From a virus (Duplodnaviria; Caudoviricetes), in the IMG/VR virus record IMGVR_UViG_3300025099_000002, positions 1-60,448 of that record: a DNA stretch of 60,448 nt. One strand, 5' to 3'. Position numbers and translations under genes: made by a program. Each line of letters starts with the position of its first letter. Within the stretch, counting starts at the first letter, position 1. Below the pieces are notes generated by a model. That model was not told the origin of the DNA. It made no database searches and was given only the letters and a program-made list of their open reading frames with translations. Of the stretch, positions 25,058 to 41,432 are shown piece by piece.

Positions 25058-25083
25058 AAAACCATATCCCAAAACCATATCCC
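25058..25083. repeat. Tandem 13-bp repeat (AAAACCATATCCC x2) in the divergent intergenic region
   Basis: Read directly from the sequence. Confidence 0.8.
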
Positions 25084-25128
25084 CCTCTAAAAGTTTTTCT
25101 AAATGGTATACCCATATCTATAGCAGTT

Positions 25129-25144
25129 CGAGGTCGTTACCTCG
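25129..25144. repeat. Early-region palindrome copy 1, CGAGGT-CGTT-ACCTCG
   Basis: Read directly; context agttCGAGGT...ACCTCGcactaa. Confidence 0.85.
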
Positions 25145-25246
25145 CACTAAATAAATTATTTTACTTAGGGTCGCTTGACTTATGTTACTCAATTTGTAAT
25201 AAGAGTTGTACTACTAAAACTTAATCTTAATTTACGGAGAATAAAA

Positions 25247-25873
25247 ATGACACAAGTACAACTAAAGATCGCTACACCTTCAACTCTAAAGTGCGTTATG
25301 GATAGCTCAGGCGTTTTCACAATAGGTCGAGGCAAAGAGGCTGTGGCCTATCAACCAAACGAATTATTAGACTATTGCGCGGATTTAATGGATCAAGCGA
25401 AACTAAATGGTGTATCTCAAATTGAAACTTATATCACTGTGGGTAATGCTATTGAGCAATACAAATTACTATATCCAACTAATAACCAAAAATTTAAAGC
25501 TTCAGTAGATAAATCTAGGTTTGGCATGGAATATAACTCTAAGTCTAGAACGGCTCTAATGAATATCGCTACCAACGCGGATAACATTCGCAAGGCCTTC
25601 GTTAAAGATCCGTCAATTGCTTTCCAAGGCCTAGACAGCCTAGCCAAAAAAGCGCGCGGCTATACTCGACCTACTGCAACCACTAAGCCTAAGAAAACGT
25701 CTAAGTCTAAGTCTAAATCAAACGTAGCATTTAAGGCTCAAAATAAATCGGAGAACGGTTTAGATGCCATTGTCGATATGTCACTTGAACTAGTCACATT
25801 AGCTCTATCACTAGGTCAAACTGAAGCTCAGGTTGTTGCTTTAATTCAGGACAACTTTAAAGACCTATCTTAA
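25247..25873 (+). CDS. First early protein, DUF3102-like DNA-binding candidate (start revised to 25247)
   Basis: GGAG RBS before ATG 25247. VGNAIEQYK...KFK...F...RTALMNIA resembles the DUF3102 pattern; K-rich linker. Confidence 0.5.
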   Translation: MTQVQLKIATPSTLKCVMDSSGVFTIGRGKEAVAYQPNELLDYCADLMDQAKLNGVSQIETYITVGNAIEQYKLLYPTNNQKFKASVDKSRFGMEYNSKSRTALMNIATNADNIRKAFVKDPSIAFQGLDSLAKKARGYTRPTATTKPKKTSKSKSKSNVAFKAQNKSENGLDAIVDMSLELVTLALSLGQTEAQVVALIQDNFKDLS

Positions 25874-25899
25874 ACTAAACTATTACAATTTAATATTTC

Positions 25900-25927
25900 G
25901 CCTAGCGTGTTTAATTATGCGCTAGGC
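25900..25927 (+). terminator. Hairpin after the first early gene (terminator or processing site)
   Basis: GCCTAGCG...CGCTAGGC perfect 8-bp stem, extended by G-U pairs. Confidence 0.55.
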
Positions 25928-26011
25928 TTAAGCTTGTCTTATGCTATGCATACTGTAAATCATGATAGTATGTATTGCATGGGGCGCGTTAGGCGTTTCA
26001 TATTAACCGTT

Positions 26012-26027
26012 CGAGGTAGCTACCTTG
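26012..26027. repeat. Early-region palindrome copy 2, CGAGGT-AGCT-ACCTTG
   Basis: Read directly; one C>T change, which would be a G-U pair in RNA. Confidence 0.8.
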
Positions 26028-26056
26028 GACTAAACTTTAAAGTAAAGGATATATAA

Positions 26057-26293
26057 ATGGATAAAGATTTTAAATTTCAGTGTACTACAGGTGCATTAAA
26101 TACACCGCATATTACTATAGGTAATGTAAGTATCGTTAAGTTTGATAATCACTGTGAGGTAGCTATTATAACAAATAATGGTGATTTAGTGCATGGGCGT
26201 AGCGTAAAGTTTGAGACAGCTAGGCAATTAGCTAACGCTATCTTAGCTATACTTGATGGGGCTATGTATGATGAGGATGCCTACGATGCATGA
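26057..26293 (+). CDS. Early hypothetical protein
   Basis: 78 aa with AAGGA RBS. Confidence 0.6.
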   Translation: MDKDFKFQCTTGALNTPHITIGNVSIVKFDNHCEVAIITNNGDLVHGRSVKFETARQLANAILAILDGAMYDEDAYDA

Positions 26294-26393
26294 TGACATA
26301 ATGCTTATGGCACTAACAGCAATCATAGCTACGCCTATTGTAGCATTTATAGTTTATATATTGTGGGAGCAGTGGCTGTGGAGGGATAGATAA
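26286..26393 (+). CDS. 35-aa single-pass membrane micro-protein A (not in ORF track)
   Basis: MHDDIMLMALTAIIATPIVAFIVYILWEQWLWRDR; GAGGA upstream; its stop overlaps the next ATG. Confidence 0.55.
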   Translation: MHDDIMLMALTAIIATPIVAFIVYILWEQWLWRDR

Positions 26394-26491
26394 TGAATAC
26401 TGATATTACTATATTGATTGGCCTTTATGTATTTATATTTGTGCCATTCATAGCGTTTGCATTGTATATGCTGTGGGATGATTGGCGGTGA
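26393..26491 (+). CDS. 32-aa single-pass membrane micro-protein B, similar to A (not in ORF track)
   Basis: MNTDITILIGLYVFIFVPFIAFALYMLWDDWR; GGAGG RBS. Confidence 0.6.
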   Translation: MNTDITILIGLYVFIFVPFIAFALYMLWDDWR

Positions 26492-26492
26492 T

Positions 26493-26521
26493 TTGACATC
26501 CCCTTTATCTTTAGTTATACA
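26493..26521 (+). promoter_or_regulatory. Early sigma70-type promoter
   Basis: TTGACA-N17-TATACA, followed 11 nt later by palindrome copy 3. Confidence 0.6.
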
Positions 26522-26532
26522 AGTAAACAGTT

Positions 26533-26548
26533 CGAGGTAACGACCTCG
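26533..26548. repeat. Early-region palindrome copy 3, CGAGGT-AACG-ACCTCG
   Basis: Read directly; the core is the exact reverse complement of copy 1. Confidence 0.85.
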
Positions 26549-26584
26549 CACTACAATTTAATCTTAAACAACATGGAGAATAAT

Positions 26585-27178
26585 ATGTATAAACGTGACA
26601 ACAAAAAAATAGCTAAGTTCATACTGAAGAACCCCGACAACACTGTAATAGGTATAACGTTTGTGCTTGGCACTATTCAGAATGCATTGTCTAACGTAGG
26701 CAAGTTTATGGATGGTGTAGCTAATGAGGGTGCAACCAGTATAGCAATGACTATGAAACGTAATGGTTACTTGTACGCTGTAGAACACAAGCACGTATTG
26801 CATCAAGCACTCAAGGTAGCAGTCAAACATAACGACCCAGTTGGTGCTATAGATGTACTCACTAACGTACCCAACTTAGGCATAGTCAAGGCGGCATTTG
26901 TGGCTCAGTTAGTAGGGTTAGATGTAGCGTGTCTCGATAGTCATAACCTCGATAGGTTAGGCCTAGATCGTGCTGCACTAAAGTTCGCTAAGACTGTTAA
27001 GCCAGAGACTAAGCTTAAGAAGATACAGAAATACGTACTCTTAACTCAGGAAACTGGTGGCTCTGAGTATTGGTGGAATACTTGGTGCGACTACGTAGCT
27101 GGTAACAGAGCTAACAAGAAATTAACTACAGGTGATGCGGTATCTGCGTATCACGCAACTTGCATAATAGGAGGATAA
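26585..27178 (+). CDS. HhH-GPD DNA glycosylase-like protein (start revised to 26585)
   Basis: VPNLGIVKAAFVAQLVG.DVACLDSH resembles the HhH-K...D motif of Ogg2-type glycosylases (GIG.K.A..F...G...A.LD.H); GGAG RBS. Confidence 0.55.
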   Translation: MYKRDNKKIAKFILKNPDNTVIGITFVLGTIQNALSNVGKFMDGVANEGATSIAMTMKRNGYLYAVEHKHVLHQALKVAVKHNDPVGAIDVLTNVPNLGIVKAAFVAQLVGLDVACLDSHNLDRLGLDRAALKFAKTVKPETKLKKIQKYVLLTQETGGSEYWWNTWCDYVAGNRANKKLTTGDAVSAYHATCIIGG

Positions 27179-27197
27179 TCAAGTAACGATAACCATT

Positions 27198-27213
27198 CGA
27201 GGTAGCTACCTCG
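27198..27213. repeat. Early-region palindrome copy 4, CGAGGT-AGCT-ACCTCG
   Basis: Read directly; followed by ACTAAACTTTAA, as is copy 2. Confidence 0.85.
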
Positions 27214-27243
27214 TACTAAACTTTAACTTATGGAGGACATAGA

Positions 27244-27639
27244 ATGTCACTTAACTGGAACTGCGAAGCAGTAGAAGACTTCGATAATGTATGTATGAAA
27301 GAAGATAATACCTTATCTAACTTAACCGAAACACTAATATGGGCTGGAGCTAGTGTAGGCTACGGAGAGATCACTAAAAAGAATTACGTTAATTACCACA
27401 AACGTATGGCTTTCATTGAAGCTATGCGAGGTGTTTACTTACGTACAGAGGTACGAGGTAAGGTTGTAGATAGACCTATCACTATAAATGACATCAAAAA
27501 GCATATAGGTTTACACACTAACTGGGATAACAAGTCAGATAGCCAATGGCTTAAAGACTTCTATAAAAATGAGTTAGGTTACGTTAGATGGCGTAACCTA
27601 GATCTATTCACTGAAACACAAAACAAGGAGATAAAATAA
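27244..27639 (+). CDS. Early hypothetical protein
   Basis: 131 aa with GGAGG RBS; MSLNWN...LIW...VG.GEIT..N...HIGL.TN. Confidence 0.7.
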   Translation: MSLNWNCEAVEDFDNVCMKEDNTLSNLTETLIWAGASVGYGEITKKNYVNYHKRMAFIEAMRGVYLRTEVRGKVVDRPITINDIKKHIGLHTNWDNKSDSQWLKDFYKNELGYVRWRNLDLFTETQNKEIK

Positions 27640-27857
27640 TGCACAATATGATTAAAGAAATAAAATTTGTTACTGATGCAAACCTAAAGTTCTTAACTAA
27701 AAAACTAAAAACACATAAAATGTACTTAGAGTACATACGATCTACTTTGTTGGAACAAACTAGAATAAGACAAGCTAGAGGTAAAAGTGCATTGGCTATG
27801 GCTAGAATTGAGAAGGCTTTAGAGTATGTAGAAAAACTATTAGAGGAGGTAAAATAA
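27639..27857 (+). CDS. Early hypothetical protein
   Basis: 72 aa, AAGGAG RBS, coupled to the upstream stop. Confidence 0.6.
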   Translation: MHNMIKEIKFVTDANLKFLTKKLKTHKMYLEYIRSTLLEQTRIRQARGKSALAMARIEKALEYVEKLLEEVK

Positions 27858-27859
27858 AA

Positions 27860-28117
27860 ATGCTTATAGGATTAACTTATATACAAGACATACCCGAAAG
27901 CCTTAACAGCTTTCCTATAATAGCGTGGCGACCCATACCACTACGAGACTTCAAGAATGCGTACTGGTGTGGTGTATGTTACAGGCACAATCATAAGCTA
28001 CACCCTTACGTATGCTTCACTGCTTACCGTCACAATATAGATGACAACTCTTGGGCTGAGGGTAGCTACTACGCCACTATGGAGGAGGCACTATATTGTT
28101 TTGCAAAAAGAACCTAA
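27860..28117 (+). CDS. Early hypothetical protein
   Basis: 85 aa with GGAGG RBS. Confidence 0.6.
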   Translation: MLIGLTYIQDIPESLNSFPIIAWRPIPLRDFKNAYWCGVCYRHNHKLHPYVCFTAYRHNIDDNSWAEGSYYATMEEALYCFAKRT

Positions 28118-28222
28118 GAAAAACTACGGTGTGCAAACGTACACGTAAGGCACTACGCGCAGATAAGTGGTGGAGTAGTGCCTACTTAAAACAAATGTTA
28201 TCTAAAAACAGAGGAGATACTA

Positions 28223-28474
28223 ATGAAACAGATAATAAAACAATCCGTAATGCATCACGGAAAGAAAATTAAGATGAATAGGGAGTACGGTGATCCCAAG
28301 AATAATAATCTATGGAGTTACCCTGATGATGAAACAATAGAATACGATAATGTATTAGATCTGCGTTTATGGAAAGATAATAAAGGACGCAAAGTTTTTT
28401 CTATTTATGTAGCAGGTAACACTGATGATCCAGTTGAACACTATCGTTTAATAGATTTGTATCGAGATGAATAA
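28223..28474 (+). CDS. Early hypothetical protein
   Basis: 83 aa with GAGGAG RBS. Confidence 0.6.
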   Translation: MKQIIKQSVMHHGKKIKMNREYGDPKNNNLWSYPDDETIEYDNVLDLRLWKDNKGRKVFSIYVAGNTDDPVEHYRLIDLYRDE

Positions 28475-28718
28475 TAAACTTCGTATAACTAAACGTCTTT
28501 ATGATTGGTGCGTTTTAAATAAAGAACCAGTACCTCGCATCTTCAAAAAATCTCATATGTATTATTGGATAGACGTAGATGATAAACCCAAGATGGATTC
28601 CATACTGTTGTGGGCTGACTGTTTGTTTTATCAATCTAGCGACAGAAAAGTAAAAGGATCAGCATCATCACTTAAAAAAGCATACGGTAAATATATAAGT
28701 ATGCAGAACCTCATTTGA
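28467..28718 (+). CDS. Early hypothetical protein
   Basis: 83 aa, overlapping the upstream stop. Confidence 0.5.
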   Translation: MNNKLRITKRLYDWCVLNKEPVPRIFKKSHMYYWIDVDDKPKMDSILLWADCLFYQSSDRKVKGSASSLKKAYGKYISMQNLI

Positions 28719-28743
28719 CAACAGGATTACTATATGATATCTC
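28715..28743 (+). promoter_or_regulatory. Probable early promoter
   Basis: TTGACA-N17-TATCTC with TG extension, followed by GTTGTACAACTAAA (near copy GTTGTACTACTAAA at about 25205) and palindrome copy 5. Confidence 0.45.
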
Positions 28744-28763
28744 TGTTGTACAACTAAAGTGTT

Positions 28764-28779
28764 CGAGGTCATTACCTCG
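28764..28779. repeat. Early-region palindrome copy 5, CGAGGT-CATT-ACCTCG
   Basis: Read directly; extends to a 12-bp stem if G-U pairs are allowed. Confidence 0.85.
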
Positions 28780-28814
28780 GACGCTCAACTCACTAAGCTA
28801 TGAAAGGAAAACAA

Positions 28815-29696
28815 ATGGCTTTAGATACAACAAACTACCAAAAAGAATACTTCAACTTAACTACAGACTTCGAAGTGCCTCAGCACCTAGACTTCCCTAT
28901 TAGATACGAAGACACACGCTTCAAGGGTAAGAAGTATGTCATCAACGGCAATACTGATGAGGTCTTGGGTATTGTGGGTGCAGGGTTTCCGTCTGTACCT
29001 CACGGTGACTTCTTCAGGAACATCGTCAATGCAATCGTAGAGAACTTCGGTTCAGAGGATACGTCAGAGGTTATACCTAGGTTTAGTTCAGCACATAATG
29101 GTGCAGTAGCATTACTAGACATAGTGTTCCCTAACATATCTTACACTATCCGTACTGATAAGCATACAACTGAGGTATCTCAACGAGCTATCTTGTGGCA
29201 CGGTATAGACGGCACTAAGAGTAACTTGGGTGTGTTCGGTGCAGTCGATAACTTTTGTACTAACGGTATTATTACTGGTACATACGAGCAAGTACGTAAG
29301 AAGAATACATCAGGCTTTAGTCTTAGTAACTTCGTTGATGAGATAAAGCAGTCACACAATAACTTCATAGAACACGCTAAGTACCTACAGCGTATGGCTG
29401 ACACAAACTTCGGTGCGTCTCAAATGGACAACTTAAAAGAATTGTTAGAGCCTATGGGTATGTCTAAGCGTATGGCTAGTAATATGTATGACTTGTTTAT
29501 AGATGAAGCTTCTGTTAGAGGTAAGAACCTCTGGGCTTTGTATAGTGCCATGACTAACTACAGTAGTCACACTGATAACGGCTTTAAGTTAAAAGATATG
29601 GGTAACGATACTCGTGCTACATCAATGTGGGAACGTGAACAGAAGGTAGTCAAGTGGACTAACTCAACAACATTTAAGGAGCTACTAGCGGCATGA
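28815..29696 (+). CDS. DUF932/LGT_TIGR03299-like protein (start revised to 28815)
   Basis: LGIVG...H..FF, HGIDG..S...G...FCTNGII, NLWALYSAMTNYSSH; AAAGGA RBS. Confidence 0.7.
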   Translation: MALDTTNYQKEYFNLTTDFEVPQHLDFPIRYEDTRFKGKKYVINGNTDEVLGIVGAGFPSVPHGDFFRNIVNAIVENFGSEDTSEVIPRFSSAHNGAVALLDIVFPNISYTIRTDKHTTEVSQRAILWHGIDGTKSNLGVFGAVDNFCTNGIITGTYEQVRKKNTSGFSLSNFVDEIKQSHNNFIEHAKYLQRMADTNFGASQMDNLKELLEPMGMSKRMASNMYDLFIDEASVRGKNLWALYSAMTNYSSHTDNGFKLKDMGNDTRATSMWEREQKVVKWTNSTTFKELLAA

Positions 29697-30004
29697 GTAA
29701 TAAATCATTCAATATAATTATGGAGACACAACAAGATATACATTTTGTTCCTTTATCTCACGAGCAAAACAGGTATTTTGTTATGTCCTTTTTAAGGAAA
29801 GATAATGCCTTGCAGAAATGCAAGGTGTTAAAACATAAGTTTCCTGAGTACAGTTTTTCTGTAGAAAAGAGATCACCTAGTCAGCATATGGGAAATGCTT
29901 TTCCTGAGATGTTTAGGGAGGCGGTAAACATTATGTTACAAGATCATCCAGATTACCTTAGTCTTAAAAAGAAAACACCACATCTAACCTTAGTGAAAGG
30001 ATAA
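29693..30004 (+). CDS. Early hypothetical protein
   Basis: 103 aa with ATGA overlap and AAGGAG RBS. Confidence 0.55.
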   Translation: MSNKSFNIIMETQQDIHFVPLSHEQNRYFVMSFLRKDNALQKCKVLKHKFPEYSFSVEKRSPSQHMGNAFPEMFREAVNIMLQDHPDYLSLKKKTPHLTLVKG

Positions 30005-30143
30005 CTAATGACTGAACATTTAGATACGATATGGGAAGTATTACACGCCTATCGGGAAGACAACATTCCAGAGGGTATTGATAACAACGATGAGACGTGG
30101 GATGATATCTGCTACGCTATGGCTATAATAAAGGAGAAGATTA

Positions 30144-30347
30144 ATGCCTAAAGTATGGATTAGCGCAACAATGGAAACCTATCTGAAATGGGAGGGAGAC
30201 GTACCCGATGACGTACCCGAAGATGAACGGCGTACATGGATCAAACGCAACGTGGACGGTGGTGAGTTCATACAGCATGACGGCATAATGGATGGCGGTT
30301 GGTATTTGAGCGACGACGTACACTTAGTAGATGAAGGAGATAACTAA
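30144..30347 (+). CDS. Small acidic hypothetical protein
   Basis: 67 aa, AAGGAG RBS, visibly more GC-rich than its neighbours. Confidence 0.6.
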   Translation: MPKVWISATMETYLKWEGDVPDDVPEDERRTWIKRNVDGGEFIQHDGIMDGGWYLSDDVHLVDEGDN

Positions 30348-30610
30348 TGAAACCTATAATTAAATTCGAAGACGATGAACTAAATTGTATAAACGTATGC
30401 CTCGATCATTTCATAGAAGACAACGCAGATGCTTTTAAATTTGATTTCTATCCTTGTTTCCCTTTTAAACAAGAAGAATTACATCAAGGAAAAAAATCTG
30501 TTTCTGTTCAACTAAAAACTTACTCTGATTTTCTAAAGAAAATAAGTGTAGCTGTTAGAACTTTAAATAAAATTAAAAAACTAACTGAAATACAAGAGAA
30601 GGAAGAATAA
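30347..30610 (+). CDS. Hypothetical protein
   Basis: 87 aa, AAGGAG RBS, coupled to the upstream gene. Confidence 0.55.
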   Translation: MKPIIKFEDDELNCINVCLDHFIEDNADAFKFDFYPCFPFKQEELHQGKKSVSVQLKTYSDFLKKISVAVRTLNKIKKLTEIQEKEE

Positions 30611-31235
30611 TATGATGAAGAAATATAAAGTAGCGTTTACATATGAAGAAGAAGTAGAAGCTACTGATCGTTGGGAAGCACTACTAACAGTTGCAGAAAA
30701 AGGTGAAACAATACTTGAAAACTTTTCATCAGATGCAACAGTGGAGGAAATAATATGATGAATAAGGAACTATTAGAAGAAGTACGTAAAGCAAACAGCT
30801 TAGTTGCGTGTCTGTTAGATGATACAGATAGAACAGTATCTGATTATTTAAATGATATAAAACAAATACAAAACCAGTTAAATTTTGTAGAGAATTACAT
30901 TTCAGAAAGAAAGGAAATAAAATGAATGATAGCCAAATAAATGCACTAGCAAAAGCTATAGCCAATCAAGATGCTAAAACAGGTTACATAACAGATTGGC
31001 ATCACGCATATGAAAACGCCTTTCATGCTATAGAACAAAACCCAGATTTATTTACATATAAAAAAACTATTCAAGAAAGGGGGAAAATAATATGAGTATA
31101 TTTAGTGGTCTAATAGCAGTAATGCTATTGATAGCTTTTACAGCTCCGTCTACAACAGTAGATGATGCTGTCAATAAAGATGATAGTACTACAACTACTA
31201 CTACAACTGACGAGTAACATTAGTTGTATAACAAC

Positions 31236-31268
31236 AAGGTATCCCTGCTTCTGGGGGTACTTTAATTT
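31236..31268 (+). terminator. Probable intrinsic terminator
   Basis: GGTATCCCT-loop-GGGGGTAC stem with G-U pairs, followed by TTTAATTT. Confidence 0.5.
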
Positions 31269-31288
31269 AACTTAGAAGGAATTAATAA

Positions 31289-31537
31289 ATGAATTGTTAT
31301 GGAACAGTAAGAATCTATGAAGTTGATAAGTCATACAAAGTAAAAGTTAAAGGTTTTCCAAGGCGTTATGAAATTAAAAGACATAAAGACGAAAAAAAGT
31401 GGAAGTATAAACTAGTTGGCACAGATAAATATATAAACGACATAGAAGACTTAGTCGTAATGCAAAGAGAATGGCTAAGAAAATTTATGTATGCTGATGG
31501 TTTAAAGTTTGAGTATGTCTTAGAGGAGATACATTGA
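31289..31537 (+). CDS. Hypothetical protein
   Basis: 82 aa with AAGGA RBS. Confidence 0.55.
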   Translation: MNCYGTVRIYEVDKSYKVKVKGFPRRYEIKRHKDEKKWKYKLVGTDKYINDIEDLVVMQREWLRKFMYADGLKFEYVLEEIH

Positions 31538-31538
31538 T

Positions 31539-31892
31539 ATGAGACTATACACAGATCAGAAAGGCAATTGGAGAGGCACTCAAGCTGACGCTAAAAAAGA
31601 TTTAGACCAATGGGATACTACAGATGTACCCACAAGTAAGGCTGAGTTACTTGAGTTTCTCAATGTACATAAAGTTGGTGCGGCTAATGTTATAAAGCCA
31701 GTTAAATATGTAACGCCAACAAGTTCACATGAGTTTGTCCATGATGATGAGGGTGAGGTAGTCGCTATCAAGCCTAGAGTTTCACCTATAGATAAAAGCA
31801 ACCTAAAGAATGCATTCGAACAGGCAGGAGCAGCAAGAGAGTCTCTTAAACGTGTCTTCGAAAAACTAAAAGAGTTAGAGGAGATACACTGA
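31539..31892 (+). CDS. Hypothetical protein
   Basis: MRLYT...W.GTQADAKK...DVPTSKAELLEFLN; GAGGAG RBS. Confidence 0.65.
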   Translation: MRLYTDQKGNWRGTQADAKKDLDQWDTTDVPTSKAELLEFLNVHKVGAANVIKPVKYVTPTSSHEFVHDDEGEVVAIKPRVSPIDKSNLKNAFEQAGAARESLKRVFEKLKELEEIH

Positions 31893-31894
31893 CA

Positions 31895-32101
31895 ATGAGA
31901 AAAGTTATACTTAGTAGTACCCACCCAGTAAAATCGCTACACGGTCACACGCAAGCTGAGTGGGATCTCTTGTCAGAGGAAGAGAAGTTACACGCTTGGT
32001 TAAAGACGTGTCCGTTTGATTACCTGATGGTAGGCATCGAGGAAGGACTAAGAACTGTAAACTTTGTTGTAGAGGAAACTATAGATGATGAAGATAGTTA
32101 A
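31895..32101 (+). CDS. Hypothetical protein
   Basis: 68 aa, WLKTCP motif, GAGGAG RBS. Confidence 0.55.
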   Translation: MRKVILSSTHPVKSLHGHTQAEWDLLSEEEKLHAWLKTCPFDYLMVGIEEGLRTVNFVVEETIDDEDS

Positions 32102-32428
32102 GTCTGTTATAAACAGTATACTATATTTTATGTTTTTATGTTTTGTTACATACGTTTTTTATGGTGTAGCATTTAGTTTTATTTCATGAGTGTTGATGGT
32201 GAGGAGGATGACCCAGTTGATGATTGGGCATCCACCGACTTAACTAAATTAGAGGATAAAGGAGAAGATAATGTTCCTATCAAAAAAGATGAGGGAGAAG
32301 ATAAATCAGTACGCAGTAGCACAACACAAACTAAGAAGAAAAAGAATGAGAAATAAATGTAGACTTATTGATGCATTTATGGGAAAAGACTTTTGTTCTC
32401 ACGCTTGGTCATACTGGGTTACAAATAA

Positions 32429-33358
32429 ATGAAACGAAAGAAGTTAGTTATATCAGAAAGTTCAACAGTTAGACAGGCGTGTGAGTTTTACTTTAGCACC
32501 CCTGCCTATCTTAAAATATCAGGTAGAAGCCAAAAAGATTATTACAACACTATGATTAAAGCGTGTAACACACCCGTGCAAAACAATAAGTTGTTCGGTG
32601 GCATACGATTAAAAGACGTTAGGTTTAAACACGCTACTCATTTATATGATACTTGGTTAGCTAACATAGGTGTCAGACAAGCTAACTTTCATCGTACTTG
32701 TATGAGTATTGTTTTTAATACTGCTATACGTAATGAAGCTATTGTATCTAATCCAATGTCTTTAGTTAAAGGCACACCAGATACGGCTCGTAAAGTTAAA
32801 TGGACAGAGAACCAAGTAAAACTATTTTTAGCTACTGCCTTTAGTGAATACAGGTGGAAAGCAATAGGCTTGATAGCTTATATGGCATATGAATGGGGTC
32901 AAAGACCTGGAGATATGCGTAATTTAAAGTGGGATACATTAAACTTAAATGAGAAAAGACTAGACTTAGAACAAAGTAAAAGAAGAGCTAATGTACACTT
33001 ACCAATTAGTGATGATCTTATAAAAATACTTAAGAAGCAGTATGAATACGTTAAAGATATTTCTGAATACGTTGCACCTCGTGTGTATCCTAGAAATGGT
33101 GGCTACTCACCGTATAATATGTCAGAGATATCTACTTTAGCTAATGAAGTTAAAGAAGAGGCAGGTCTACCTAAAGAGTTATGGATTATGGACTTAAGAC
33201 GTACAGTTATAACTGAAATGGTTGAAGCAGGAGTTGACGTTACAGGTATCATGCAAGTTAGTGGACACAGTAGTCCTGATAGCGTCACGCCTTATCTAGT
33301 TAATACTTTTCGTGGGGCATCAACAGCATTAAATAAAAGAAAGGCTAATAAAGAATGA
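32429..33358 (+). CDS. int: Tyrosine recombinase/integrase
   Basis: Catalytic set GQRPGD (R), QSK (K), MDLRRT (HxxR-like, H replaced), SGHS (H) and PYL (Y). Its position upstream of primase is typical of HMO-2011-type phages. Confidence 0.85.
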   Translation: MKRKKLVISESSTVRQACEFYFSTPAYLKISGRSQKDYYNTMIKACNTPVQNNKLFGGIRLKDVRFKHATHLYDTWLANIGVRQANFHRTCMSIVFNTAIRNEAIVSNPMSLVKGTPDTARKVKWTENQVKLFLATAFSEYRWKAIGLIAYMAYEWGQRPGDMRNLKWDTLNLNEKRLDLEQSKRRANVHLPISDDLIKILKKQYEYVKDISEYVAPRVYPRNGGYSPYNMSEISTLANEVKEEAGLPKELWIMDLRRTVITEMVEAGVDVTGIMQVSGHSSPDSVTPYLVNTFRGASTALNKRKANKE

Positions 33359-34143
33359 ATGTTAAGTCTCACCTAGATACTTTAACGATAGCTGAGGGTC
33401 AGCGTTTAAGAATGGATTGCCCACAGTGCAGAGCTAAAAATACATTTACTGTATGGAAGGATGACGGTGTATTAGTTTACCACTGCTTCAAACTTAGTTG
33501 TACAGTTAGGGGTGCATACGGAATAGGCATGACTGCTGATGAGATTAAAGTTAAGATGCAGGGTCACTCTACCGATAAGCCTATTGATACAGAGCGTATG
33601 GTAGTGCCAGAGTACTTAGTTAAACCATCACATCAACACACAGAAATGCAAAAGTTTATAAGGAAATGGAACCTTTATACAGAAGACTTAATGTATGACG
33701 TTAAGGATAGTCGTGCAGTATTTCTGATAAAAGAAAACAACAGGTTGCTAGATGCCACTGGTAGATCTTTAAATGGGTCTAAACCTAAGTGGTTTAGGTA
33801 TACAGGAGAAGCTACTGTTTTTACAAGAGTGTTAGGTAACTCAAACGATACAGTAGTAATAGTTGAGGATGTCATTAGTGCTATAACTATTGCACATCTT
33901 TTTCCTAGAACAACGGGGTTAGCTATCTTAGGTACTTCACTAGGTGAGGCTCAAATGCAACACATACAAAACTATTCTAAGGTAGTTGTAGCGTTAGACC
34001 CTGATGCCGCACACAAGACCTTGACATACAAACGAGAGATAGAGGCTTGGACAGGATTAAACACTATAGCCATGCGGCTAGAAGATGATATAAAATATAA
34101 AATAGAGGACGACATAGCTAAGTTAGAAAGGATATTACAATGA
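33355..34143 (+). CDS. DNA primase (zinc finger + TOPRIM)
   Basis: CPQC...HCFKLSC zinc finger; VIVEDVISA and ALDPDA TOPRIM motifs. Confidence 0.85.
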   Translation: MNVKSHLDTLTIAEGQRLRMDCPQCRAKNTFTVWKDDGVLVYHCFKLSCTVRGAYGIGMTADEIKVKMQGHSTDKPIDTERMVVPEYLVKPSHQHTEMQKFIRKWNLYTEDLMYDVKDSRAVFLIKENNRLLDATGRSLNGSKPKWFRYTGEATVFTRVLGNSNDTVVIVEDVISAITIAHLFPRTTGLAILGTSLGEAQMQHIQNYSKVVVALDPDAAHKTLTYKREIEAWTGLNTIAMRLEDDIKYKIEDDIAKLERILQ

Positions 34144-34309
34144 GTATATGTGGTGAGATAGAGAATGTTAAAGTAGAGATAGAGACACTAGAAGAGTTAA
34201 TTAAAAATGAACCTAAAGATGGGTTTAATGCTTGTAGTAATATATCCGTTATGGTTTTAGATTCTATTAGATCAGCTAAGAAAAGACTAAAAGAACTGGA
34301 AGCCGCTCA

Positions 34310-35536
34310 ATGATGGAACTGGCTCTCATCAAAACGATGATGAATAAAGAGTTCTATGAAAGACATAAAGGTATACGTTGCCCAGATAAAATCTTTACTA
34401 AAGACACTCGTAAAATTAAACAATCACTAGATGTCGCTATGAAAGAATACGACACTGACTTATCAGCATCAGACTTAGAAGCTCTATTCTTTTCTACTAA
34501 TCAGACTATGACTACATCAAACAAAGAGATGTATAAAATACTTTTTAGTAAGCTAACTAAAGAACAACCCATGAATGATAGCATAGCTGAAGAGGTGCTA
34601 TCTAAATTGTTTCAACAAGTTGTAGGCGAAGAGGTAGCTAACTTAGGTTTTGATTACGTTAATGGTACAACCAATTCGCTAGAGCCTCTGCGTAACATCT
34701 TAGAAAAATATCAGGATGACTTTACGCCTAACCTCAAGATTGAGTACGGTGACATATCTTTTGAAACAATACTTAAATCTTCGAAGATACAATCACAATG
34801 GAAGTTTAACATACCTAGCTTAAAGCGTAAGGTAGAAGGTATCTCTGGTGGTCACTTTATAATTGTAGGAGCTAGACCTAATACAGGTAAGACTTCTTTC
34901 CATGCTTCCTCTATAGCTGCACCTAATGGTTTTGCTCACCAAGGTGCTAAATGTATGGTGCTGTGCAACGAAGAAGACTACATTAGAGTAGCCGCTAGGT
35001 ACTTATGTGCAGCTTCTAGTATGTCTCTAGAAGAGATTAATACTAATCAATCTTTAGCTATGTCACGATACAGTAAAGTCCGTAAAAACATAACAATTAT
35101 AGATAGTACATCTAAAGACTTAGCGTGGGTTGAATCTATTATAAAACAAGATGAGCCAGACATAGTTATCATAGATATCGGAGATAAGTTTGCACCTAAG
35201 ACAAGTGATAAGTCTGATGTATACCTAAAAGATGCCGCTATATACGCACGTAACATAGCTAAACAGTACAACTGTGCAGTGATATGGATGTCACAGCTCA
35301 ATGCTGAAGCTGAAGGTAGGGTGCGTGTAGATCAATCTATGCTTGAAGGTAGCCGAACAGGTAAAGCCGCTGAAGCGGATCTTATATTACTTGTAGCTCG
35401 TAACCCTATAACGGATGAGAGCGAAGAAGAAGACAGACAGAGGCACTTAGTAATAGCTAAGAATAAGTTAACAGGAGGCTGGCACGGTACTATTCATTGT
35501 AACTTAGACGGTGAACGCAGTCAGTACTTGGTGTAG
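34310..35536 (+). CDS. Replicative DnaB-like (SF4) helicase
   Basis: Walker A GARPNTGKTS, IVIID, MSQLN, AEADLIL and AKNK motifs. Confidence 0.9.
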   Translation: MMELALIKTMMNKEFYERHKGIRCPDKIFTKDTRKIKQSLDVAMKEYDTDLSASDLEALFFSTNQTMTTSNKEMYKILFSKLTKEQPMNDSIAEEVLSKLFQQVVGEEVANLGFDYVNGTTNSLEPLRNILEKYQDDFTPNLKIEYGDISFETILKSSKIQSQWKFNIPSLKRKVEGISGGHFIIVGARPNTGKTSFHASSIAAPNGFAHQGAKCMVLCNEEDYIRVAARYLCAASSMSLEEINTNQSLAMSRYSKVRKNITIIDSTSKDLAWVESIIKQDEPDIVIIDIGDKFAPKTSDKSDVYLKDAAIYARNIAKQYNCAVIWMSQLNAEAEGRVRVDQSMLEGSRTGKAAEADLILLVARNPITDESEEEDRQRHLVIAKNKLTGGWHGTIHCNLDGERSQYLV

Positions 35537-35538
35537 CT

Positions 35539-37587
35539 ATGAGACTAGTATTAGATGTAGAGAATACAGTAACTAAACGAGGTGGTAAGAAACATCTAGA
35601 TCCCTTTGAGCCAACAAACTCTCTAGTACAGGTAGGGTTTAAGAACGTAGACATACCAACAGAGAGATATATGCTTACGTTTGATCACACTGAATATAAG
35701 GATACTAGTGGTGCTAACTATAAGTTAGTACAGCAAGCATTAGACGAGACTACACTACTCATCATGCACAATGCTCAGTACGACTTGATGTGGCTCTGGG
35801 CGAGTGGCTTCAAGTATGATGGGGCGGTGTGGGATACGATGCTGGCGGCATACATACTCATACGAGGACAAAAGTTTCCGCTGTCCTTAGAGCAATGTGC
35901 TATCAGAGCAAACTTACCTTTTCAGAAAGATGATACACTCAAGGCTTACTTTAAGAAAGGTTACAACACAGATGAGATACCTCTTGATGAGTTAACTTAT
36001 TACTTAGGGTGTGACTTAGATACTACGTGTGCCTTGTATGAACACCAACTCAAGAGTTATTCTTTAGATGAATCATTAGGCATGGTTACTGTAAGAGATC
36101 TAACATTTAAAGTTTGTCAGACGCTTACTCGTATGTATATGTCAGGCTTTAAGGTAGACAGAGCCGCATTAGTAAAAGTGCGTACTGAGTTTGAGAATGA
36201 GAAAGCAATACTAGAAGATAGGTTGCACGATCAAGTCAAGCTATTAATGGGTGACACTCCTATTAATTTAAACTCCCCAGAACAAATGTCACAAGTTATA
36301 TTTAGCCGTAAGGTAGATAATAAGAAAGAGTGGGCTGATTTATTTGAGCATACTAGGACACCTGCTGAGTACAAAGATGCCGTAGAAGCTAACAGTAAAT
36401 TAATTAGGCGTACAACTGCTTACACTTGCCCTGTATGTTTAGGTGAAGGTAAGACCTATAAAACTAAGAAAGATGGCACTCGTTTCGCTAAACCTAATAG
36501 GTGTGTGGGGTGTGATACTCGTGGCTATCAACTGAAGCAATTAAATCAGTTAGCTGGGCTAGGACTTATTGCACCCTCGAAGAAGTGGGTTAGTGCTAAT
36601 GGTTTTAGTACGAGTAAACAGAACTTAGATACACTAATAGCTACAGCTAAGAATAATAATATGGATGAAGCTATAAAGTTCTTGACTGATTTAAAAAGAC
36701 TATCTGCTGTATCGTCTTACTTATCTTCTTTCGTTGAAGGTATAGATATATTTACTAAACCAGATAACTTCTTACACGTAAGTCTTACACAACACGTAAC
36801 ATCTACAGGTAGGTTCTCAGGTCGTAATCCTAATATGCAGAATATGCCCCGTGGAAATACGTTCCCAGTTAAGAAAGTGTTTATATCTAGATGGGATGGC
36901 GGTCAGATCCTGGAGGCAGACTTCGCTCAACTAGAGTTCCGTGTAGCTGCATTTCTCTCACAAGACCCTGTAGCTATCACAGAGATCAACCAAGGGTTTG
37001 ATGTACATAGCTACACAGCTAAAGTTATTAGTGATGCAGGGCAGCCTATTTCTCGTACTACCGCAAAATCTCATACATTTGCCCCTCTTTTTGGTGCGAG
37101 TTCATATGGTAAATCAAAAGCAGAGGGTGCATACTACGATCACTTTAACGAGAAGTACCAAGGCATAGCTGCTTGGCATCAGAGTTTAGCTGAAGAGGCG
37201 TTACGCTTCGAGAAGATTACTACACCCAGCGGAAGGCAGTACGCTTTTCCTAAAGTAGTACGTAGGCAAAATGGTGGAGTGTCTAGCTTCACTATGATTA
37301 AGAATTACCCTGTGCAAGGGTTTAGTACTGGAGATATAGTACCCCTTGTATTGGTAGAACTAGAGGAGAGACTAAGTAAACTGCAGTCTTGTCTAGTTAA
37401 TACGGTGCATGACTCAACAGTAGTTGACGTACACCCTACAGAGATACCTTACGTCATATCTATAATAGATACACTTAACAAAGATCTTAATGTTATCATA
37501 GAAGAAACGTATGGTGTGACCATGAACGTTCCACTACTTTTAGAAGCTAAAATAGGAGCTAATTGGCTTGACACAAAAGACGTTTGA
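35539..37587 (+). CDS. polA: Family A DNA polymerase with inserted DnaJ-like zinc domain
   Basis: Exonuclease DVE, HNAQYD and YLGCD; TGRFSG..PNMQN; motif A DFAQLEFR, motif B RTTAKSHTF, motif C VHDS; CPVCLGEG...CVGCDTRG insertion. Confidence 0.95.
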   Translation: MRLVLDVENTVTKRGGKKHLDPFEPTNSLVQVGFKNVDIPTERYMLTFDHTEYKDTSGANYKLVQQALDETTLLIMHNAQYDLMWLWASGFKYDGAVWDTMLAAYILIRGQKFPLSLEQCAIRANLPFQKDDTLKAYFKKGYNTDEIPLDELTYYLGCDLDTTCALYEHQLKSYSLDESLGMVTVRDLTFKVCQTLTRMYMSGFKVDRAALVKVRTEFENEKAILEDRLHDQVKLLMGDTPINLNSPEQMSQVIFSRKVDNKKEWADLFEHTRTPAEYKDAVEANSKLIRRTTAYTCPVCLGEGKTYKTKKDGTRFAKPNRCVGCDTRGYQLKQLNQLAGLGLIAPSKKWVSANGFSTSKQNLDTLIATAKNNNMDEAIKFLTDLKRLSAVSSYLSSFVEGIDIFTKPDNFLHVSLTQHVTSTGRFSGRNPNMQNMPRGNTFPVKKVFISRWDGGQILEADFAQLEFRVAAFLSQDPVAITEINQGFDVHSYTAKVISDAGQPISRTTAKSHTFAPLFGASSYGKSKAEGAYYDHFNEKYQGIAAWHQSLAEEALRFEKITTPSGRQYAFPKVVRRQNGGVSSFTMIKNYPVQGFSTGDIVPLVLVELEERLSKLQSCLVNTVHDSTVVDVHPTEIPYVISIIDTLNKDLNVIIEETYGVTMNVPLLLEAKIGANWLDTKDV

Positions 37588-37596
37588 TGGTATAAC
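37568..37596 (+). promoter_or_regulatory. Sigma70-type promoter for the ssb-nuclease-nrdJ block
   Basis: TTGACA-N17-TATAAC with an extended -10 TG. Confidence 0.7.
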
Positions 37597-37629
37597 TTAA
37601 CTTCATTTTTTGACAACAAAGGATACAAA

Positions 37630-39386: not shown

Positions 39387-39601
39387 TGAACAGGACGTTT
39401 ACAATAGACGATAAATCTTACGCAGAAGAAGATATGAATGAAGATCAAAAACGATTATTTAACACCATATTAAACATACAAAATGAAATAGGGTCAGTTA
39501 AATTAAAGTTTGATAGCTACGACACTTACGCTAAAGTCCTTAGCCAACAATTAGCACATTCTTTAACTTCAGAGAGTGCTGATAAGCCAAGTGAAACGTA
39601 G
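39386..39601 (+). CDS. Small coiled-coil protein
   Basis: TFTIDDKSY..EDMNEDQK; AAGGA RBS. Confidence 0.55.
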   Translation: MNRTFTIDDKSYAEEDMNEDQKRLFNTILNIQNEIGSVKLKFDSYDTYAKVLSQQLAHSLTSESADKPSET

Positions 39602-41430: not shown

Positions 41431-41432
41431 TT

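Follow-up and report, generated by a model that had tools for sequence, protein, structure and literature searches.

The palindromes and the genes around them

The stretch of DNA analysed here (the window) is a 60,448-bp record and represents the complete 60.4-kb genome of a marine phage, an HMO-2011-type podovirus. This affiliation had been guessed correctly in the initial annotation, as a tblastn search with DnaB places HMO-2011 and the CRP roseophages nearest among isolates: CRP-603 and CRP-2 at about 71%, followed by CRP-207 and CRP-1 at about 60% and HMO-2011 at 56%.

The early region carries five copies of the palindrome CGAGGT-N4-ACCTYG (Table 1). When the pattern was scanned with up to 1 mismatch, 10 strand-matches were obtained, which correspond to 5 sites (25129, 26012, 26533, 27198 and 28764) spanning 25129-28779; the chance expectation was 0.22 on average and 2 at most in 100 dinucleotide-preserving shuffles. 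As the initial annotation had claimed, there is no further copy in the entire record. A look-alike at 29515-29532, found by a 3-mismatch scan inside the 28800-29696 ORF, was rejected as a chance match, because in the relatives L116 and L115 it is kept as coding sequence whatever the arm type and is non-palindromic there.

Table 1 Features of the early region and the downstream integrase gene
Feature	Position	Strand	Sequence or remark
GGTATACCC box immediately upstream of copy 1	25105..25113	+	read in sequence
Palindrome copy 1	25126..25147	+	GTT-CGAGGT-cgtt-ACCTCG-CAC
Promoter-like site before gene 1	25175..25202	+	TTGACT-N16-TAATAA; by eye, not listed by the scanner
Gene 1	25247..25873	+	208 aa; first early gene, candidate palindrome reader
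Terminator-like hairpin after gene 1	25900..25927	+	GCCTAGCG-N12-CGCTAGGC; by eye
Palindrome copy 2	26009..26030	+	GTT-CGAGGT-agct-ACCTTG-GAC, one G-T pair; ATG at 26057
Promoter-like site upstream of copy 3	26493..26521	+	TTGACA-N17-TATACA; read in sequence
Palindrome copy 3	26530..26551	+	GTT-CGAGGT-aacg-ACCTCG-CAC; ATG at 26586
Palindrome copy 4	27195..27216	+	ATT-CGAGGT-agct-ACCTCG-TAC; intercistronic; ATG at 27244
Promoter-like site upstream of copy 5	28715..28743	+	TTGACA-N17-TATCTC; conserved in L116 and L115
Palindrome copy 5	28758..28785	+	core GTT-CGAGGT-catt-ACCTCG-GAC; ATG at 28816
Tyrosine integrase gene, downstream of the array	32429..33358		

Copy 1 is located in a divergent intergenic region, upstream of the TTGACT promoter-like site, and ends 99 nt before the ATG of gene 1, to which its right arm has a distance of 102 nt. 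For copies 2 to 5, the distances from the right arm to an SD-preceded ATG are 29, 36, 30 and 35 nt, respectively, in line with the spacing described initially. Copy 3 begins 8 nt past the TATACA of its promoter-like site, copy 4 follows the stop codon of the gene at 26573-27178 at a distance of 17 nt and is spanned by an RNA-library contig (27094-27272, 100% identical), and in copy 5 G-U pairs lengthen the complementarity to 12 bp. The TTGACA-N17 sites previously said to precede copies 3 and 5 are both present; the consensus scanner missed them because the final T is absent from their second hexamers, and it did not list the hairpin after gene 1 because the loop is larger than 8. The GGTATACCC box stands directly 5' of the first palindrome in L116, L125 and the IMG/VR contig 3300021960_000353 too; this box could be a -10-like element or an additional binding site.

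The arrays of related phages

What is newly found here is that relatives have a matching array in the corresponding positions, built from different arms. In a comparison across relatives, as had been proposed in the initial annotation, eight arm types were found, and they were mixed in none of the 12 distinct records with at least 3 copies. The numbers of copies are 5 in each of the window, L116 and L118, 3 in L125, 3-4 in roseophage CRP-1, 3 in HMO-2011, 8 in each of L184 and L200, 9 plus 1 in 3300021960_000353, 7 in each of 3300009467_000016 and 3300021197_000510, and 3 in 3300011128_000140; arrays are carried by isolates too (CRP-1 and HMO-2011). The palindromes are absent from CRP-2, CRP-603 and CRP-207, which retain the integrase. 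Of 102 matches in a metagenome scan, 71 carry precisely the arms GTCGGA/TCCGAC with varying loops and flanks, which argues for selection on the arm sequence and not on pairing alone.

The switches of arms between close relatives are abrupt and all-or-none. L200, with the arm GTCCTA, and a GTCGGA genome are 96.4% identical in DnaB DNA, and the identity among pairs of GTCGGA genomes is as low as 86.7%. Between the window and L116, the flanks of copies 4 and 5 are kept and the inner 15-16 bp are replaced; the arms differ at 5 of 6 positions. The constant 3' box of the palindromes has been lost from the L116 lineage.

The placement of the copies was compared in 10 sequences, where 34 of 43 copies lie 8-48 nt upstream of SD and ATG. 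Stems in the relatives have 6-9 bp and 3-nt loops, follow the gene orientation and lie 11-48 nt before start codons, in the early region only; promoter-proximal copies begin 8-20 nt past a -10-like hexamer, and copies of the GTCGGA lineage, like those of the GTCCTA lineage, have a common leader of about 45 nt, SD included. Two to three of the 4 copies in CRP-1 are away from gene starts, one of them inside gene 1.

The arms show strict dyad symmetry. Eight loci supplied 26 distinct copies with 3-nt loops (156 cells); 98.7% of the core cells are Watson-Crick pairs and none is G-U, and both-sided changes are found at 5 of the 6 pairs (36 cells), values matched by 0 of 500 shuffles. The commonest imperfect pair is A-C, seen in 13 of 23 GTCCTA/GTCCTG copies. 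The centre of copy 1 (CGTT) is the reverse complement of that of copy 3 (AACG), as noted initially, and loop pairs of this kind recur within genomes (cgtt/aacg in the window, ctgt/acag in HMO-2011, and further taa/tta, caa/ttg, cag/ctg and aat/att). The suggested search for spacer inversions found the copy-1 loop flipped to AACG in contigs of two DNA runs (X4 and X8). The centre is 2, 3 or 4 bp long depending on the lineage, by which the phasing of the half-sites changes. As far as these sequences indicate, the centre of the palindrome is not read.

Folding bore out the G-U pair of copy 2 and the stem extension of copy 5, which forms a 12-bp stem of -18 kcal/mol (z -6.1). Stem energies lie between -7.8 and -19.9 kcal/mol, the lowest z being -6.1, and the stem of the GTCGGA lineage has just 6 bp (z -1.4). 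The outer stem extensions, that of copy 5 included, use G-U pairs valid on the + strand only, and the two outermost pairs of copy 5 show compensatory differences among the window, L116 and L115. No Rfam family matched the palindrome hairpins.

Gene 1 as the candidate reader

Copies bracket gene 1 in the window, L116, L118 and L184. Gene 1 co-varies with the arms: its product is only 27.6% identical between the window and L116 (E 4e-5), against 83-90% for 8 neighbouring genes, and in L230, which has a GTCCTG copy, the gene behind the first palindrome is another one, even though the DNA upstream shows homology to that of a GTCGGA genome. Palindromes are present in all 4 distinct fetched contigs with a gene-1 homologue, as well as in the window, CRP-1 and three more contigs, and the array-less CRP-603, CRP-2 and CRP-207 lack gene 1 throughout their genomes, yet HMO-2011 has its 3 palindromes and no detectable homologue across its whole genome; these co-variation and co-occurrence counts come from few, related lineages.

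The gene 1 product consists of a helical core (residues 37-140), a disordered linker rich in Lys, Ser and Thr (142-170) and a C-terminal helix pair. Its earlier description as DUF3102-like was not confirmed, since the window protein has no Pfam match and the homologue of L125 reached DUF3102 only below threshold (E 0.021; 15.5 bits, cut-off 24.4); neither a Pfam or PHROG family nor a ParB N-terminal domain was found. The product is predicted to be a symmetric homodimer, with a score of 0.81 (best control 0.00), a mark reached by 20 of 30 solved same-chain pairs and 1 of 23 solved single chains; contact agreement between runs was at least 60% and the partner pLDDT at least 73. In a fold search of 48,161 chains, independent of Foldseek, ParB-family DNA-binding domains recurred as matches to residues about 20-162 of the model, namely KorB with operator (1r71, Z 5.6), Spo0J (1vz0, 5.1), SopB with DNA (3mkw/3mky, 5.0/4.8), ParB with parS (6s6h, 4.5), VirB with DNA (3vwb, 4.3) and KorB (8qa8, 4.3), and the C-terminal helices matched ParB-C (4rs7, Z 4.2); every match is below Z 8, which the tool classes as noise when the model is helical. 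The highest-ranking matches were unrelated Raf1 domains, and Foldseek gave no match with the model. The modelled likeness to ParB/KorB-type DNA-binding domains, the only recurring fold matches of gene 1, is a weak one.

Interpretation and comparison with known systems

Among the three options given initially, the one now supported best is an operator for a regulator of the phage, for which the first gene is the candidate; the RNA hairpin is a rival, and the part concerning the integrase is unsupported. The operator reading is favoured because the arms are dyad-symmetric and lineage-specific, the centre flips, and gene 1 changes together with the arms and encodes a predicted symmetric dimer; that the array consists of operators for a lineage-specific dimeric regulator, likeliest the gene 1 product, is a proposition to which we give an even chance. 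The five palindromes would be putative double-stranded DNA binding sites of this regulator, in which each arm would be read by one monomer and the 2-4 bp centre, being unread, would be free to flip. From sites just past early promoter-like sequences, within the short stretches separating early cassettes, and on both sides of the regulator's gene, the protein, once bound, would impede the host RNA polymerase in leaving the promoter or in elongation, and the early region would be shut off or silenced, with gene 1 itself regulated too. The same layout with lineage-specific palindromes suggests a private binding-site code, the reader of which is probably the phage's own first early protein. Close relatives would hold a different pair of protein and site, as heteroimmune phages or incompatible plasmids do, and we infer that immunity may have driven this diversification. 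The CRP-1 copies away from gene starts count for operators; the variable length of the centre, the lack of gene 1 in HMO-2011, the noise-level fold matches and the genome scan with no sign of lysogeny count against them, as does the G-U extension of copy 5 with its compensatory outer pairs, which a protein site does not predict.

The leader shared with SD and ATG would suit an RNA element, although short intergenic gaps could also explain it. A transcribed leader hairpin, with its A/U-rich tract and SD, at early 5' ends and between cistrons is doubtful in our judgement and remains the main rival, and a serious one. Such a hairpin could protect the downstream message, or the upstream 3' end, from RNases, mark where processing takes place, or keep upstream sequence away from the ribosome-binding site, and the uniformity within a genome would be due to gene conversion among copies or to a lineage-specific RNA-binding protein. 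It agrees with the leader position, with copies beginning so close past the -10-like hexamer that the hairpin would be at the transcript 5' end, with the stable stems, and with the G-U pairs of copies 2 and 5. Gene conversion between copies is also real: copies 4 and 5 of L116 have about 41 nt in common, a copy-2-type hairpin occupies the copy-5 site in a contig of run X10, and a closing-pair variant is found in 4 of the 8 copies of L200. The RNA-library contig bridging copy 4 fits as well, but it may derive from contaminating DNA, and contigs cannot reveal RNA ends. A core without G-U in which A-C is the commonest imperfection is unusual for a selected RNA stem, the invariant arms of the 71 metagenome copies point to selection of sequence rather than just pairing, and to our knowledge proteins that read an RNA stem but ignore its loop are rare; the CRP-1 copies outside leaders, the short GTCGGA stem and the Rfam result also speak against it.

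Two further readings are much less probable. The hairpins might be N4-type extruded-DNA promoters for an unrecognised, perhaps virion-borne, phage RNA polymerase, with transcription starting within the ACTAAA tract, as the stem and loop sizes, the orientation and the restriction to the early region would allow; the constant 3' box presumably resembles the T7-group promoter core, and four large virion-module ORFs match no known family. We regard this as very unlikely. N4 promoters require a defined loop, and the flipping loops mean that the central loop base is not conserved; the 3' box is missing in the L116 lineage; sigma-70-like sites already lie upstream of copies 3 and 5; and there is no RNA polymerase family among the 90 ORFs scanned with PHROGs or Pfam. 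The ORFs of 1379, 878, 965 and 798 aa have no sequence likeness to any solved structure, and by language-model features the 1379-aa ORF clusters with polyvalent-protein clusters. That the palindromes are core sites of the tyrosine integrase, for integron-like excision and insertion of cassettes, is unlikely to the point of being close to refuted. Inverted arms do flank a short centre that flips, and the integrase gene does lie downstream, but tyrosine recombinases exchange strands across 6-8 bp and the centre is just 2-4 bp; moreover, the integrase has been kept in the three isolates that have no palindromes, and it is 83% identical between the window and L116 despite their different arms.

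The other part of the initial recombination option has partial support: genes may be shuffled at the copies by homologous recombination, as at PeSL elements, and the copies serve also as gene-conversion and cassette-junction points. As the primary role this seems improbable to us; the copies would be portable junction modules at which homologous recombination or template switching shuffles, inserts and deletes early cassettes, and concerted evolution, without any reader protein, would account for their uniformity. Two cassettes with a copy at their head, MTLQEM and MYKRDV, have one order in 3300021960_000353 and the opposite order in L200; window gene 26057 stands behind copy 2, and its homologue in L116 is within the copy-4 cassette; L125 precisely lacks copy 4 and its 5' flank (a 38-nt indel between AC dinucleotides); the same cassettes bear different arms in different genomes; and the homology of the window with L116/L115 restarts 1-15 nt past copies 2, 4 and 5. 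The inter-site copy events in L116 and run X10 agree with this, and PeSL stem-loops likewise vary among T4-type lineages, as far as they are described in PMC4122927. Other indels of the region (27625/27639-27844 and 26259-26353) are not bounded by palindromes, and the cassette breakpoints of other phages are at the gene start rather than the hairpin (loose ends 26575-26585). Differing arms in close relatives would hinder interphage recombination at the sites, purifying selection on the arms within a lineage and all-or-none switches also count against this role, and unlike in PeSL there is no space for a promoter between hairpin and ATG in 4 of 5 copies.

Several known systems resemble the array in part. 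The phage-plasmid N15 has several dispersed inverted repeats, the SopB centromere sites, to which a ParB-family protein binds and which influence the expression of genes close by; N15 is a plasmid prophage with a full SopA/SopB partition system, whereas no ParA-like gene was seen among the window's genes. The boxB hairpins of lambda-type nut sites, read by N, and the early hairpin promoters of N4 are likewise short, early and phage-specific in sequence, but both are read through the loop, which here varies and flips, and neither an N-like protein nor a phage RNA polymerase was identified in the window.

Stoperators are many copies of a short repressor site in intergenic gaps that block transcription past the promoter, and their co-evolution with the immunity repressor makes relatives differ; the array shares the spread across short gaps and the differences between relatives. 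Each stoperator is an asymmetric, orientation-dependent site for a monomer, whereas the core here is dyad-symmetric and its candidate reader a predicted dimer. The phages that carry them are proven to be temperate, and the genome scan gave no sign of lysogeny for the window's group, returning just contigs of metagenome-assembled bins. The comparison is with the stoperators of Cluster A mycobacteriophages, to the extent covered by PMC6550527 and PMC9283540. PeSL (promoter-early stem-loop) cassettes of T4-type phages, going by what PMC4122927 describes (see also PMC2839356), are also repeated stem-loops between early genes in plastic regions, with lineage-specific stems, and are tied to indels and swaps between close relatives (PMC4122927). 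In PeSL a terminator stem-loop precedes a sigma-70 promoter, on the account of PMC4122927; here the palindrome follows a promoter-like site or has none and stands directly before the ribosome-binding site, and the arms are far more uniform and switch as a set.

The ParB-family global repressor KorB of plasmid RK2 and its OB operators, as far as PMC11790492 presents them, offer a further comparison. Gene 1 has no sequence homology to KorB and a fold match at noise level, and since the 208-aa protein is without the N-terminal CTP-binding domain of ParB (Pfam), sliding-clamp spreading is not expected; the sites here stand before almost all early cassettes and are exchanged as a whole from one close relative to another. 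Like OB in that account, the array is a short palindrome repeated on a mobile genome, near promoters and away from them; OB is read for gene silencing by a dimeric ParB-fold domain, and gene 1 is predicted to be dimeric.

The palindrome array and its setting in the window

The window is a complete virus record of 60,448 bp with terminal repeats. Its early and replication genes run rightward in one block, which is flanked on both sides by structural and lysis genes in the leftward direction (see the table). Comparison of DnaB showed that the closest cultured phages are CRP-603 and CRP-2 (about 71%), CRP-207 and CRP-1 (about 60%) and HMO-2011 (56%); because these roseophage isolates and HMO-2011 are its nearest relatives in culture, the HMO-2011 type guessed in the initial annotation is right. 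HMO-2011-type podoviruses, whose hosts are SAR116 and Roseobacter, are very common in seawater and among the most abundant marine phages, and to our knowledge nothing is known of their early-gene control; they are not known to encode an RNA polymerase. No RNA polymerase family was detected among the 90 ORFs by a PHROG/Pfam-type family search, and a tRNA scan found none. The palindrome region gave no blastn match to cultured phages, and a prophage search of 185,579 species genomes returned only 5 contigs, from metagenome bins, with no integrated copy seen. At the end of the structural operon lies a 1379-aa ORF for which Pfam, PHROGs and PDB sequences gave no match. Its language-model features place it among viral clusters; the nearest of those with a Pfam family carry LPD38/LPD3/MuF_C (polyvalent virion protein) domains, neighbours of a kind that the tool flags as often chance.

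The motif CGAGGT-N4-ACCTYG was found at exactly five sites in the window, against a chance expectation of 0.22, with no sixth copy in the rest of the genome, and all five copies are intergenic, as had been described. In copies 2-5 the right arm is followed after 29-36 nt by an ATG that has a ribosome-binding motif, in agreement with the earlier estimate of about 30-36 nt; in copy 1 it ends 102 nt before gene 1. The TTGACA promoters noted before copies 3 and 5 are also present, as promoter-like sites read by eye (TTGACA-N17-TATACA and TTGACA-N17-TATCTC, respectively); a consensus promoter scanner lists neither, owing to the second hexamer of each. The predicted RNA folds of the window copies range from -7.8 to -18 kcal/mol. 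A look-alike at 29515 was dropped as a chance match, being conserved coding sequence that is non-palindromic in relatives.

Several other elements were observed around the palindromes of the window and of related loci or contigs (L-numbers). TATACCC/ATATCCC repeats occur upstream of the first palindrome, and directly 5' of it a GGTATACCC(CT) box is conserved in three lineages; this box may serve as the -10 of the leftmost early promoter or as another protein site. In HMO-2011, L118 and CRP-1, palindromes are preceded at a distance of 15-20 nt by a conserved promoter-like block, CTTGATA..ACTTTAGTGAAAGT..TACTTA, which contains a small inverted repeat of its own (ACTTT-N4-AAAGT) and may be a second, separate operator. 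Where the leftward operon of relatives begins, a long non-coding stretch contains several copies of the palindrome AACATTAATGTT, which the window lacks. Several relatives also have a conserved G-rich tract (GGGTGGGG...GGTGG) in their divergent intergenic region, within a gene-free stretch of 0.5-0.8 kb; the shorter intergenic region of the window has no such tract.

Coordinates of features in the window and in related loci
Feature	Location	Direction	Remarks
Early and replication genes	window 25247-43937	rightward	small early genes, integrase, primase, DnaB, PolA, ribonucleotide reductase
Integrase	window 32429-33358		within rightward early/replication block
Palindrome copies 1-5	window 25129, 26012, 26533, 27198, 28764		
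Gene 1	window 25247-25873	+	208 aa, first early gene
93-nt stretch	window 26259-26353		strain-level indel or replacement
201-aa early gene (MYKRD...)	window 26573-27178		loose ends 26575-26585
72-aa gene	window 27639-27857		joints 27625/27639 to 27844
1379-aa ORF	window 43938-48077	-	end of structural operon
TATACCC/ATATCCC repeats	window 25062-25113; L116 ~1090-1118; L125 ~3880-3905; L286 ~960-975		upstream of first palindrome
CTTGATA..ACTTTAGTGAAAGT..TACTTA block	L295 (HMO-2011) 14-47, 1216-1250; L118 1600-1640, 2618-2660; L296 (CRP-1) 1005-1030		
AACATTAATGTT palindrome copies	L116 480-700; L160 853-1360; L145 1726-1880		
GGGTGGGG G-rich tract	L116 860-900; L125 3650-3680; L286 ~500-540; L118 90-125 (complement); L160 ~1290-1330 (complement)		

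Arms and loops in related phages

The neighbouring genes of L116 are 83-90% identical to those of the window, yet the window motif is absent from it, and each of the five corresponding positions has GTT-TGCGGA-N3-TCCGCA-GAC instead. The arms of L125 match those of L116, and the arms of L115 and L123 (TACGGA/TCCGTA) have one base pair altered on both sides. A sister clade (67% DnaB identity) carries TTAAC-GTCGGA-N3-TCCGAC-ACTAA in 6-10 copies per genome, or further arms GTCCTA, GTCCTG or GTCGTA; GTCCAA-N2-TTGGAC occurs in L118 and the isolate CRP-1, and HMO-2011 has three copies of (A)GTCCG-N4-CGGAC(T). The arm types total eight, and they are never mixed in any of the 12 distinct records that have at least three copies. 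Relatives carry 3-10 copies, which in the fully searched records lie in the early region only. No repeated palindrome was found in the more distant relatives L152, L160, L163, L511-L515, CRP-2, CRP-603 or CRP-207, and the early regions of these three isolates and of several uncultured relatives are tightly packed without such repeats. L514, a metagenome-bin contig of 12088 bp in this set, has two GTCCAA-type palindromes like L118 and CRP-1 and is probably a further member of their lineage. Across HMO-2011-type genomes, where the initial annotation proposed a search, the array recurs at equivalent places, its arms differ by lineage, and some relatives lack it.

An exact scan of viral contigs for the window motif gave 109 single matches and no multi-copy contig, so the matches were taken as chance; the scan is uninformative because relatives have other arms. 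A scan for GACACTAA-N2-14-GGAGAC gave at least 118 matches, none palindromic among the matches listed. No description of the element was found in the openly searchable full-text literature on HMO-2011.

A set of 26 distinct copies with 3-nt loops, taken from 8 loci, gives 156 cells, of which 98.7% are Watson-Crick paired and none is G-U; five of the six arm pairs have changed on both sides, and the shuffle and slid controls did not come close. Across 71 metagenome copies of the GTCGGA lineage the arms never differ, although the loops and flanks do, which argues that the arm sequence itself is selected and not pairing alone. The innermost pair is loose, with an A-C closing pair in 13 of 23 GTCCTA or GTCCTG copies; the outer GT...AC is constant across all lineages, and the positions that define lineages are inner ones.

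A single genome can have loops that are reverse complements of each other (cgtt/aacg, ctgt/acag, taa/tta, caa/ttg, cag/ctg and aat/att), and the loop of copy 1 is AACG in contigs of the two DNA runs covering it versus CGTT in the window. The inverted spacer noticed at the outset is on these grounds a general, recurrent flip of the centre, seen in several genomes and, at copy 1, between strains; the population data are assembled contigs only. Minute inversions are known at hairpin-forming inverted repeats. Since the centre flips, it is not read strand-specifically, and this counts against systems in which the loop is recognised, for example boxB with N or N4 promoters.

The arms change abruptly and completely rather than by gradual drift, because L200 (GTCCTA) and a GTCGGA genome have 96.4% DnaB DNA identity, whereas pairs within GTCGGA go down to 86.7%. 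Between the window and L116, the inner part was replaced at all five sites, and copies 4 and 5 keep their flanks, with only the inner 15-16 bp replaced. Such replacement at every site requires copying between sites, of which direct traces were found: about 41 nt common to L116 copies 4 and 5, about 28 nt with two mismatches common to window copies 2 and 4, a contig of run X10 in which the copy-5 site has a hairpin of the copy-2 type, and a closing-pair variant in 4 of 8 L200 copies.

Strain-level indels or replacements were also seen in contigs of runs X4, X8 and X10. A 72-aa gene and a 93-nt stretch are lost or replaced, neither with a palindrome at its ends. For the 201-aa early gene, contig depth is much above that of its neighbours in three marine runs, and there the sequence in front of the gene is unrelated, with the join precisely at the gene start; we therefore regard it as a cassette widely common to other phages.

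Gene 1, a candidate reader of the palindromes

Gene 1 has its own promoter-like site and terminator-like hairpin and is bracketed by palindromes in the window, L116, L118 and L184; in contig 3300021960_000353 two tandem palindromes lie upstream of it. The gene-1 products of the window and L116 are 27.6% identical, against 83-90% for 8 neighbouring genes, and identity is 15-28% between arm groups and near-complete inside them. L230, with a GTCCTG copy, has a different gene after the first palindrome, even though the DNA upstream shows homology with a GTCGGA genome. The apparent co-variation of site and gene 1 consists of these two cases (window versus L116, L230 versus GTCGGA genomes) plus co-occurrence, in few and related lineages. 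A family profile found gene 1 in every fetched palindrome-bearing contig covering that region and in CRP-1, and not in the whole genomes of CRP-2, CRP-603 and CRP-207; its absence from the whole HMO-2011 genome, where palindromes are present, is the exception. The gene-1 protein as query for related loci returned 0 loci. The family has 263 members in a large protein collection, with no name or Pfam domain among the 120 listed. Small first-cassette proteins (MTEFGK..., MFSVG...) were rejected as the arm-specific factor, the MTEFGK gene also following a GTCCTA palindrome in L484.

In two AlphaFold models (pLDDT 67 and 69), a basic and disordered linker joins a helical core to a pair of C-terminal helices. 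Foldseek found no match in PDB at E up to 0.001, and the profile matched nothing relevant among PDB sequences, only designed repeat proteins. In a wide structural search with VIA-align, 8 of the best 50 entries were DNA-binding or dimerisation domains of the ParB family (KorB, Spo0J, SopB, ParB, VirB), with scores in the noise range (1r71 Z 5.6, 1vz0 5.1, 3mkw 5.0, 6s6h 4.5, 3vwb 4.3 and 8qa8 4.3, all under the noise mark of 8). Homodimer prediction gave 0.81 versus 0.00 for the best control; among proteins of solved structure, 20 of 30 pairs of one chain attain this mark, as does 1 of 23 single chains. Agreement between the runs covers at least 60% of contacts, with pLDDT of at least 73. No Pfam family for an N-terminal ParB/Srx (CTP-binding) domain was detected (E up to 0.01-0.1) in the proteins of the window, L184, L116, L118 and L125, and with only 208 aa the gene-1 protein has no room for one. 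The only family signal among these five was a weak DUF3102 match in L125 (15.5 bits versus a Pfam cut-off of 24.4); the window protein, earlier called DUF3102-like, has none. On these models and co-occurrences, the product of gene 1 is a candidate reader of the palindromes.

Alternative readings and known systems

The best-supported reading of the sequences and models is that the array comprises operator sites of a lineage-specific predicted dimer. This would explain the strict dyad symmetry without G-U, the flipping and unread centre, and why each genome has a single arm type. It would also account for the way in which arms and gene 1 appear to change together and abruptly, for the copies on either side of gene 1, and for the CRP-1 copies that are not in front of genes. 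The initial annotation had offered a repressor operator, with the first gene as its partner, as one option; symmetry, arm uniformity and joint change speak for it, the reader role is drawn from models and likeness, and the DUF3102 label falls. Its second option, a hairpin acting in the transcript, we consider less likely, though a serious rival that suits several facts better: 34 of 43 copies stand at a constant position 8-48 nt before SD (Shine-Dalgarno motif) and ATG, the copies have a common leader, copy 5 has a 12-bp extension with G-U pairs and compensatory outer pairs, and, as weak evidence, an RNA-library contig spans copy 4 (RNA run X20, only 3 short contigs); the 156 core cells hold no G-U, and no Rfam family matches the palindromes. 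The operator and RNA readings are not mutually exclusive, since a palindrome in the leader also folds in the message.

A role at cassette junctions, like that of the promoter-early stem-loops (PeSL) of T4-type phages, appears real as a side effect: cassette order swaps, one precise loss and inter-site copies point to it, but it leaves the selection on arm sequence and the all-or-none switches unexplained, and other nearby indels lack palindromes. The proposed coincidence of breakpoints with copies holds for some indel or replacement boundaries and not for others. Sites for the tyrosine recombinase itself, also suggested earlier, are unlikely, the centre being 2-4 bp against an overlap region of 6-8 bp, and CRP-2, CRP-603 and CRP-207 keeping an integrase where palindromes are absent. 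Hairpin promoters of the N4 type are likewise improbable, for the loops flip and vary, leaving no conserved loop base, and no polymerase was detected, the large virion ORFs having been compared by sequence only. A sigma-70 promoter with the palindrome as spacer (TTAACG-N16-TAAAT...) was rejected by eye: transcription would then start within the SD or beyond it, and the window lineage does not keep the required spacing.

Extending the operator reading, we tentatively raise a possibility that we hold to be somewhat doubtful, an "address code" of HMO-2011-type phages. The first early gene would encode a small dimer of ParB/KorB fold, a matching palindrome would precede every early cassette, and close relatives would swap the whole code and so become heteroimmune or mutually non-interfering; the constant flanks would be a universal cassette junction, at which cassettes of foreign code are re-addressed by gene conversion from resident copies. 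For these phages the palindrome is a concrete, testable cis element with a candidate trans factor, the former present in two cultured phages, CRP-1 and HMO-2011, and gene 1 in CRP-1 and not HMO-2011. If genomes with 96% identity in a replication gene switch their palindromes in an all-or-none way, this would count as evidence for immunity-like diversification, in phages that are generally regarded as purely lytic. The element also illustrates how early "ORFan" cassettes can pass from one genome to another yet keep local control.

Among known systems, the PeSL (PMC4122927) precedes a sigma-70 early promoter; copies 2-5 do not, having no room for one because the ATG follows 29-36 nt after the arm, and only copy 1 has a promoter-like site downstream. 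Integron attC and tyrosine-recombinase cores have the 6-8 bp overlap and depend on the integrase, and the palindromes have neither feature. In lambda nut/boxB a conserved loop is read by an N-type antiterminator, whereas here loop sequence and orientation vary within a genome. Stoperators (PMC6550527 and PMC9283540) are a precedent for operator arrays. The palindromes, as in such arrays, form many copies of one site in the intergenic gaps of one transcription unit. Stoperators proper are asymmetric sites in a single orientation, whereas here the core is a perfect inverted repeat and asymmetry is confined to the flanks. KorB and the OB sites that it binds (PMC11790492) are a further precedent for an array read by a dimer.
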